From Escherichia coli 042 (lineage in GTDB: Bacteria; Pseudomonadota; Gammaproteobacteria; Enterobacterales; Enterobacteriaceae), in the NCBI RefSeq assembly GCF_000027125.1, contig NC_017626.1: a DNA stretch of 64,000 bases. One strand, given 5' to 3'. The notes below the pieces were generated by a model. That model worked only from the letters and a program-made list of their open reading frames with translations. It searched no databases and had not been told where the DNA came from. Positions 30,245 to 31,909 of this stretch are shown piece by piece; positions within the stretch are counted from its first letter, which is position 1, and every line of letters begins with the position of its first letter. The position numbers and the translations under genes were made by a program.

Positions 30245-31909
30245 TTAACCCTGCAGCAGAGACAGAACCTGCTGCGGTACCTGGTTGGCTTTTGCCAGCA
30301 CGGAGTTACCGGCCTGCTGAATGATCTGCGCTTTCGACATGTTGGACACTTCGGTCGCATAGTCGGCGTCCTGAATACGGGACTGCGCTTCAGACAGGTT
30401 GGTAGTGGTGTTGTTCAGGTTGGTGACTGCGGAATCCAGACGGTTCTGGATAGCACCCAGGGAAGAACGGAATTTGTCGATAGACGCGATAGCGTCATCC
30501 AATGCTGCCAGCGGGTTGGTAGTAGCTTCAGATTCACTAGTTGTATTAGTCGTTAAGTTACCATTGGCACTTACATAGATAGCTTTACTGGTAGCCGCAT
30601 TTTCACCACTAGTAATAGTGCCATCAGCTTGAGCAAAATACTCGGCAGGAGTTTTGCTCACTTTTCCATCGACTAAATACGCTGATGCAGCAGTGCCATT
30701 ATTGACTGTATATGTCGCAGGTAAAGTTACACCAACAGTTGCAGTGTAAGTCTCATTTTTAACGGCGTTAGCAAACGTTGAAGCATCAACAGAAATATCT
30801 ACCCCATCAAACTTTGTCGTATTAGCAGTAAATGTACCTTTATCTGTTGTAATGACTGTTTTGGCATTAGCATTGTTTGCCATTAAGTCAGACAGTTTAG
30901 CTTGAGTATCAGTGCCTGCGTTAGTTTTACTTAAGTTACCAGTATCATCAAGATAGAGAGCGGCACCGTCATCAGCAGCAGTTAAAGAACCATCTTTAGC
31001 AATAATGACTTTTTGCTCTTGAGCTGTTGTACCGTTGCCAATACTTACTGTTGCAGCAGTGGTACCACCCGCTTCAGGATTCAGGAATGCCGCCAGTTGA
31101 GTCGCATCAACTGAAGCAGAAGCCGTATATGTGTTAGTATCTTTATGATAAGTATATTCCACTGGCGTACCAGGGGCAGCTGCACCAAAACCAACATCTG
31201 CCTCCGTGGAAACTTTACTGCCATCAACACCAGCTACCGCATTCAAAATATCCGTGCTACTTGCGACGGCTTTGTCAGCAATATATCTATTAACTCCAGC
31301 TGTAGTGACCCCCGTATTATCGAGTTTTAAACCAACCATATCTTTAAGTGTTGCAGCAGTATTGGCTGTTTCACCTTCGCCATTCACGTTAAAACCAGCC
31401 AGATTCAGCGTATCAGAGTCAATTTTCTTCAGATCAATCGTGATGGTTTCACCATCATTTGCGCCGACCTGAATTTTCATTGAACCATCTTTGGACAGCA
31501 CGTTCACGCCGTTGAACTGGGTCTGACCGGATACGCGGTCAATTTCGTCCAGACGAGATTTGATTTCGTCCTGGATGGAGTCCAGGTCAGAATCGGAGTT
31601 AGTCCCTGTAGTGGCCTGAACCGTCAGTTCACGAATACGCTGTAAGTTGTTGTTGATTTCGGACAGCGCGCCTTCAGTGGTCTGTGCAACAGAAATACCG
31701 TCATTGGCGTTACGTGCAGCCTGAGTCAGGCCTTTAATATTAGAAGTAAAACGGTTAGCAATCGCCTGACCTGCGGCGTCATCCTTCGCGCTGTTAATAC
31801 GCAAGCCAGAAGACAGACGCTCGATAGAACTCGACAGCGCAGACTGGTTCTTGTTGATATTATTTTGAGTGATCAGCGAGAGGCTGTTGGTATTAATGAC
31901 TTGTGCCAT
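30245..31909 (-). CDS. fliC: flagellin (H antigen), 554 aa
   Basis: Conserved N-terminus [54 protein letters not shown] and C-terminus ...[67 protein letters not shown], with a T/S/A/G-rich variable centre. Confidence 0.97.

Follow-up and report, generated by a model that had tools for sequence, protein, structure and literature searches.

The stretch of Escherichia coli DNA analysed here, 64,000 nucleotides long and called the window throughout, carries a fliC gene whose conserved ends enclose a centre quite different from that of the K-12 flagellin, and the locus raises the questions of which H type this flagellin represents, how the gene came to lie on its present background, and what kind of filament its product would build. 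Taken as a whole, the evidence leads us to hold with high confidence that this is an ordinary, intact fliC in the known H18 form, situated on a segment of about 22 kb whose probable origin is an exchange with another strain.

Structure of the fliC gene and comparison with K-12

An intact open reading frame at 30245-31909 (minus strand) agrees with the preliminary description, which had called the product a 554-aa flagellin (Table 1). Pfam places Flagellin_N (PF00669) on residues 5-140 (158.5 bits), Flagellin_C (PF00700) on residues 468-552 (109 bits), and the enterobacterial FliC middle domain PF12445 on residues 344-458; the protein belongs to the FliC/FljB flagellin family by its PF00669 and PF00700 helical regions and by its position in a fliA-fliD locus with a sigma-28 promoter. 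The assignment of the termini to the conserved D0/D1 sequences is borne out by amino acid identities to the 498-aa K-12 FliC of 92.5% for residues 1-174 and 93.6% for residues 461-554. The span 30530-31390, singled out earlier as central, equals residues 174-460 of FliC, and we concur that this is the part of the protein that determines serotype. As also stated earlier, this centre is unlike that of the K-12 flagellin: residues 175-460 share 20.3% amino acid identity with it in a forced alignment, and 39% nucleotide identity, values far from the near-identity to the K-12 H48 centre that would contradict the statement.

Along the gene, BLAST homology to K-12 ends at 30514 and restarts at 31419, leaving 30515-31418 unaligned. 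In a sliding window, nucleotide identity is 1.00 over the first ~170 nt of fliC, decays to about 0.74 near 31391, lies at only 0.2-0.5 from about 31390 to 30535, and has recovered to above 0.9 by 30485. The G+C content is 0.39 in the centre versus about 0.50 in the flanks. The earlier remark that the centre is rich in T, S, A, G, and N holds, in that these residues make up 57% of the centre versus 46% of the ends, but the K-12 centre is equally rich in them (59%), which makes such a composition a general property of flagellin outer domains and no peculiarity of this allele. No tandem repeats were found in fliC, and short direct repeats within the gene reflect a recurring peptide motif, Y-x-x-x-x-GNL-[TS], and nothing more. 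An antisense open reading frame at 31206-31472 (88 aa) within fliC was taken as spurious. Residues 89-98, in the 5' conserved part, are the conserved D1 segment recognised by TLR5, which is consistent with H18 FliC having been used as an agonist of this receptor (PMC7036547).

Table 1. Positions in the window of fliC, its parts, its signals and neighbours, and the shared block that contains it
Feature	Coordinates	Strand	Basis
fliC CDS, H18 allele, 554 aa + stop	30245..31909	-	ORF; Pfam domains; 100% nt match to fliC in genomes typed H18
fliC 5' conserved part, residues 1-174, N-terminal D0/D1 helices	31388..31909	-	92.5% aa identity to K-12
fliC central variable region, residues 175-460, predicted outer domains D2-D4, H18 epitope-bearing	30530..31387	-	Low identity to K-12; 100% match in 'O15:H18 strain ST69'
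fliC 3' conserved part, residues 461-554 + stop, C-terminal D1/D0 helices	30245..30529	-	93.6% aa identity to K-12
D4 dimer-interface motif counterpart, residues 319-332	30914..30955	-	Alignment with H7 YVDDAGNLTTNNAG (N319, N323) and H6 YMDATGNLTKNNAG
fliC sigma-28 (FliA) class-3 promoter, TAAAGGTT-N11-GACGATAA	31986..32012	-	Read from sequence; region 99-100% identical to K-12
fliDST divergent sigma-28 promoter, TAAACTTT-N11-GCCGATAA	32105..32131	+	Pattern match (0.02 expected by chance)
fliC 3' UTR (~195 nt), REP-like palindromes, intrinsic terminator at end	30048..30244	-	Terminator search and sequence
fliA (sigma-28), downstream neighbour, product drives fliC transcription	29206..29925	-	ORF; protein 100% identical to K-12 FliA
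fliD (filament cap), divergent neighbour	32175..33581	+	ORF; protein 99.1% identical to K-12 FliD
21.8-kb block: 3' part of yecA, tRNA cluster, pgsA ... fliC ... fliE	19557..41319		Near-identity to ST663 O77g:H18 strain ECA64

Assignment to H18

By exact identity to the fliC of strains typed H18, the allele is H18; the call rests on the serotypes reported for those strains, most of which are in turn in silico assignments. Nucleotide identity over the gene is 100% in M7424, M00057, M11957, 118UI, and many other complete RefSeq genomes, and the central region is 100% identical in 'O15:H18 strain ST69' and DG341-1. The encoded protein is RefSeq WP_000079726.1 and UniProt Q842D0; it is annotated in 118UI, 'Escherichia coli O15:H18 strain ST69', ECA64, and O17_K12a and is present on at least 1000 contigs. 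Published serotypes cover several of these strains: ECA64, CB6837, and the DG34x strains are O77g:H18, K12a is the O17:H18 reference strain, isolated in 1940 (PMC13248637), and M7424, M00057, and M11957 belong to an O77g:H18 outbreak cluster (PMC13188871). RM14516, typed O17:H18 with the H-antigen database of Wang et al. (PMC10562709), is 99.6% identical to a 24-kb query spanning fliC, a value that refers to the whole query and not to fliC by itself. The H18 FliC of EAEC 042 (O44:H18, AF194946) has been used in a study that names 118UI as the matching genome (PMC7036547), and AY250001 serves as the H18 typing reference (PMC10506881). H18 is also listed in a study of typing by MS-H (PMC3578835), in which we found no accession linkable to the WP_000079726.1 protein.

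These identities bear directly on the reading of the gene as an H allele that is new or untypable, with a novel serotype that the typing scheme lacks. The dissimilarity of its centre to K-12 is in keeping with such a reading, as is the fact that the preliminary description could not place the allele, but a protein that is already in UniProt and RefSeq, together with nucleotide and protein identity of 100% to strains recorded as H18, the 1940 O17:H18 reference included, refutes it, and we give it next to no credence. The word "divergent", which had been applied to this centre, is apt relative to K-12 only; the allele itself is common and long known.

How common was assessed by searching 5,426 complete RefSeq E. 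coli genomes with the centre of fliC alone as the query. Matches fell into three classes, with 187 genomes at ≥99% identity, 31 at 95-99%, and 234 at 60-80%, and with none in between. The H18 centre (≥95% identity) is thus present in 218 of the 5,426, and this count and the empty interval in identity indicate that H18 accounts for about 4% of complete E. coli genomes and that the type is sharply delimited. Two classic H18 genomes, EAEC 042 (NC_017626.1) and UMN026 (NC_011751.1), are absent from the collection. With the centre alone as the query, a word-indexed search of proteins brought up, for the most part, fragments of the H18 allele itself.

Some variation within the type was seen. The H18 protein cluster also includes 552-aa and 556-aa variants, and the fliC of Br_167_kylling (L005:3482-5152, 556 aa) is a mosaic H18 variant in which the centre is 98% identical but the 5' conserved part 94%; this suggests a recombination junction inside the conserved region.

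Relation to H6 and the predicted filament

Among E. coli flagellins, H6 alone has a related central domain, which is 57% identical to the H18 centre in amino acids and 64% in nucleotides, with identity varying by block from 30% to 89%. The 60-80% class of the population search is H6, one of its genomes being named O150:H6. One might then regard the present allele as a variant of H6 and not as a separate type, given that no other E. coli allele has an alignable centre and that H6 and H18 share their domain order and can be aligned from one end to the other. We consider this very improbable: identities of 57% and 64% between the centres are low, the population falls into 218 genomes at ≥95% and 234 at 60-80% with none between them, and the genomes labelled H6 and those labelled H18 lie on opposite sides of that gap. 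A separate kind of variation is seen among the H6 alleles (L003, L008, L009, and L010, all in RefSeq genomes), which are 548, 550, 552, and 554 aa long owing to an (Ala-Thr)n repeat in the central domain, and these length differences may represent slippage-type variation in a surface loop.

To our knowledge, no filament structure exists for H18. The best sequence matches in the PDB to H18 FliC are 7SQJ and 7SN7, which cover its full length (E = 1e-238). Both represent the EPEC O127:H6 filament, in which the three outer domains, D2-D4, make up a tetrameric outer-domain sheath with a seam; outer-domain sheaths have been described for the H6, H7, and Achromobacter filaments (PMC8931119). An AlphaFold2 model of H18 FliC has pLDDT values of about 80-90 in the centre and low values in D0/D1, as expected for a monomer, and a Foldseek search with this model places 7SN7 first (E = 1e-48), the top matches being 7SN7, 7SN4, 9N59, and 7SQD; those after 7SN7 are H7, Azotobacter, and Achromobacter flagellins. 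The global TM-score of the model to 7SN7 is only 0.42, which reflects the different placement of domains in the monomer model and the low confidence in D0/D1. With H6-like sequence over its whole length and with these Foldseek matches, the H18 centre is homologous to D2-D4 of H6 and H7, and H18 very probably shares the outer-domain architecture of H6.

Within D4, a conserved dimer-interface sequence contains N319 and N323 of H7 (PMC8931119). Its H18 counterpart reads Y319-LDDTG-N325-LSKT-N330-AG, in which GNL..NAG is present; the equivalent of H7 N319 is kept (N325), and Thr329 takes the place of H7 N323, which together with one other residue was mutated in the work on H7. H6 and H7 both have Asn at this position.

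Established flagellin biology and the solved H6 and H7 filaments suggest how the subunit would assemble. The N- and C-terminal D0/D1 helices would fold together to form the filament core of 11 protofilaments, and residues ~175-460 would form three beta-rich outer domains, D2-D4, at the filament surface, where they would bear the H18 epitopes. The D0/D1 identity of 93-94% to K-12 FliC and the full-length match to solved filaments argue that the protein would polymerise into a flagellar filament. By analogy with the homologous H6 domains, which are 57% identical, the H18 outer domains would probably pair with those of neighbouring subunits to give an outer-domain sheath.

Expression signals and flagellar context

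The sigma-28 consensus is TAAAGTTT-N11-GCCGATAA, and promoters of this pattern stand upstream of both fliC and the divergent fliDST genes (Table 1). A scan for sigma-70 promoters gave matches no more numerous than in shuffled sequence; fliC uses sigma-28 anyway. Transcription of fliC would end at a strong terminator made up of a hairpin at 30054-30070 and a T run (minus strand). The 3' UTR, 91-98% identical to K-12 in 100-nt windows, is the positional counterpart of the sRNA FliX, since the K-12 annotation has fliX directly after fliC; no Rfam family matched the 3' UTR or FliX. The genes fliA, fliZ, and tcyJ lie downstream of fliC, and fliD, fliS, and fliT lie divergently upstream, which is the locus as annotated in K-12. 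The set of flagellar and chemotaxis genes is complete, and each of the 25 besides fliC has its full length and is free of stop codons. No IS elements were found in the 64 kb of the window; with this and the intact flagellar genes, Shigella is an unlikely source of the DNA.

The window is collinear with K-12 positions 1,971,077-2,035,784 by BLAST and holds no inserted genes; collinearity is broken at three places only, namely an IS1 upstream of flhD (K-12 specific), the fliC centre, and part of the yedS porin gene. Some E. coli have a second flagellin locus that represses fliC, and it could be that fliC here is intact but silent, in a strain that is non-motile or uses another flagellin locus such as flkA, fllA, or flmA. 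This is unlikely: within the 64 kb no genes have been inserted relative to K-12, no damage is seen in the sigma-28 promoter, in fliA and flhDC, or in any of the remaining flagellar genes, and the strains cited above were typed H18 through fliC.

Several further observations concern other parts of the window. Upstream of tar there is a sigma-28 promoter of perfect sequence, TAAAGTTT-N11-GCCGATAA, at 1647-1673 (minus strand), and an Rfam match to the C0465 sRNA at 1663-1740 (plus strand) overlaps it on the opposite strand. At 7419-7426, the IS1 (IS1H) that K-12 MG1655 has upstream of flhDC is absent, and the region upstream of flhD is uninterrupted. The leuZ-cysT-glyW tRNA cluster occupies 19955-20254, DsrA 53521-53607, and RseX 61943-62032. 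In the region of 38901-39647 and 39830-40633, yedL appears split (ORFs of 131 and 89 aa), and next to it are yedN/DUF5503 and intG remnants; 118UI and ECA64, which are identical to the window here, have these remnants as pseudogenes. Of the alignable 2-kb bins, the one in this stretch is the most divergent from K-12 (99 differences). An intact yedS/OmpC-like porin ORF of 381 aa lies at 62314-63459 (plus strand); yedS is a pseudogene in K-12, from which the window diverges over 62855-63445, is frameshifted in 118UI, and is an intact porin gene in ECA64. This part of the porin gene is the sole piece other than the fliC centre that is not alignable with K-12.

Recombination around fliC

The preliminary description had noted that this region is a frequent target of recombination, and breakpoint analysis by SNP mapping does show recombination around fliC. 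Compared with ECA64 (ST663), the window shows 23-52 differences in each 2 kb as far as 19556, within yecA, and only 17 differences in all from 19557 to 41319, of which 14 lie in a 645-bp patch at 25459-26103; from 41563, at the start of fliF, to about 60900 there are again 11-51 differences per 2 kb, and near-identity returns from about 60900 to the end of the window at 64000. The 645-bp patch, which lies in tcyN/tcyL, looks like a separate micro-recombination event. A second comparison, with 118UI (ST69), gave no differences over 30163-40345, 10 kb in which ~190 would be expected at the flanking divergence of about 1.9%; on its left, this shared stretch begins somewhere between 29092 and 30162, within either fliA or the spacer that separates it from fliC.

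Both flanks (1-19556 and 41563 to ~60900) have best matches of 98.5-98.8% among the 5,426 complete E. coli genomes, a result that holds even for 4-kb pieces (araFG-ftnB and fliF-fliK), and the background lineage seems to have no representative in that collection. ST69 and ST663 are identical to each other across 41.5-60 kb and both differ from the window, which makes the window the odd one out there. The likeliest account is that fliC-H18 was obtained by homologous recombination of the 21.8-kb block from the abundantly sampled O77g:H18 lineage; the pattern is observed, whereas from these 64 kb we infer the direction.

The same map could be read in the opposite sense, with the H18 block as ancestral, part of a clonal frame shared with ST663 and ST69, and with the flanks (1-19556 and 41563 to ~60900) as the imported parts, whether into this lineage or into the other. 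Near-identity to ECA64 at about 60900-64000 speaks for that order of events, since two separate blocks shared with ST663 are what a clonal frame interrupted by imports would produce, and small patches of differences such as 25459-26103 indicate that recombination is frequent here in any case. Yet it would call for two long imports from donors that match none of the 5,426 genomes at more than 98.8%, where the alternative is one import from an abundantly sampled lineage, and we consider it unlikely on balance, though deserving of real weight.

We thus favour import of the H18 block. When this is combined with the structural predictions, the full account would be that a lineage absent from the 5,426 complete RefSeq genomes took up H18 together with 20 kb of neighbouring genes in one ST69/ST663 O77g:H18 import, and that its filament, never imaged, may carry an H6-like sheath; to this composite as a whole we assign roughly even chances.

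Significance and comparison with known flagellins

The result is of value mainly for annotation, since it allows the strain to be given the label H18. The ST69 'clonal group A', which is pandemic and uropathogenic, has this flagellar type, as do EAEC 042, source of an H18 flagellin that is a classic TLR5 agonist, and the O77g:H18 STEC to which HUS cases in France in 2025 were linked. Recombination around fliC is a textbook, well-documented route of H-antigen exchange, and the shared block of 22 kb provides a clean, small example of H antigens moving between E. coli lineages. An H6-like sheath in H18 filaments, if true, would be of modest structural interest.

Beyond E. coli, metagenomic contigs (L011 and L013/L014) have the gene order amyA-fliT-fliS-fliD / fliC-fliA-fliZ-tcyJ-dcyD, as here, and encode flagellins, P0021 and P0031, with a central domain homologous to that of H18 (50% and 36% amino acid identity). 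At the nucleotide level, the genes beside fliC on these contigs show about 81% and about 75% identity to those of E. coli, which indicates that the contigs come from other genera of Enterobacteriaceae. On L011, the contig with flanks at about 81%, an H18/H6-type fliC at about 3998-5635 aligns over its full length at 68% nucleotide identity; its called protein, P0021, ends at 457 aa, perhaps through a frameshift or an assembly error. An exhaustive search of representative proteins gave 11 matches, which say little about the spread of the centre, probably because the conserved ends of whole flagellins bring them into common clusters at 50% identity.

Set against the known systems, the H18 fliC of this window is a long-known allele of a well-understood gene and no new kind of system. 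K-12 fliC (H48; core in PDB 8CXM) has the same locus, promoter, and D0/D1 ends (93-94% identical), but its centre is shorter and unrelated to that of H18 (20% in a forced alignment), and the K-12 flagellin is Salmonella-FliC-like and does not form a sheath (PMC8931119). H6 (EPEC O127:H6; 7SN7/7SQJ) is alignable with H18 over the full length, with ends 94-97% identical and with the same domain order and predicted fold; its centre differs by several short indels (548 versus 554 aa), and it is a distinct serotype. The H18 fliC of K12a, of the ST69 O15/O17/O77g:H18 strains, and of EAEC 042 (O44:H18) encodes the identical protein at the same locus with the same neighbours. Relative to the sampled H18 lineages, then, the gene shows no differences, and the genomic background differs only outside the 21.8-kb block.
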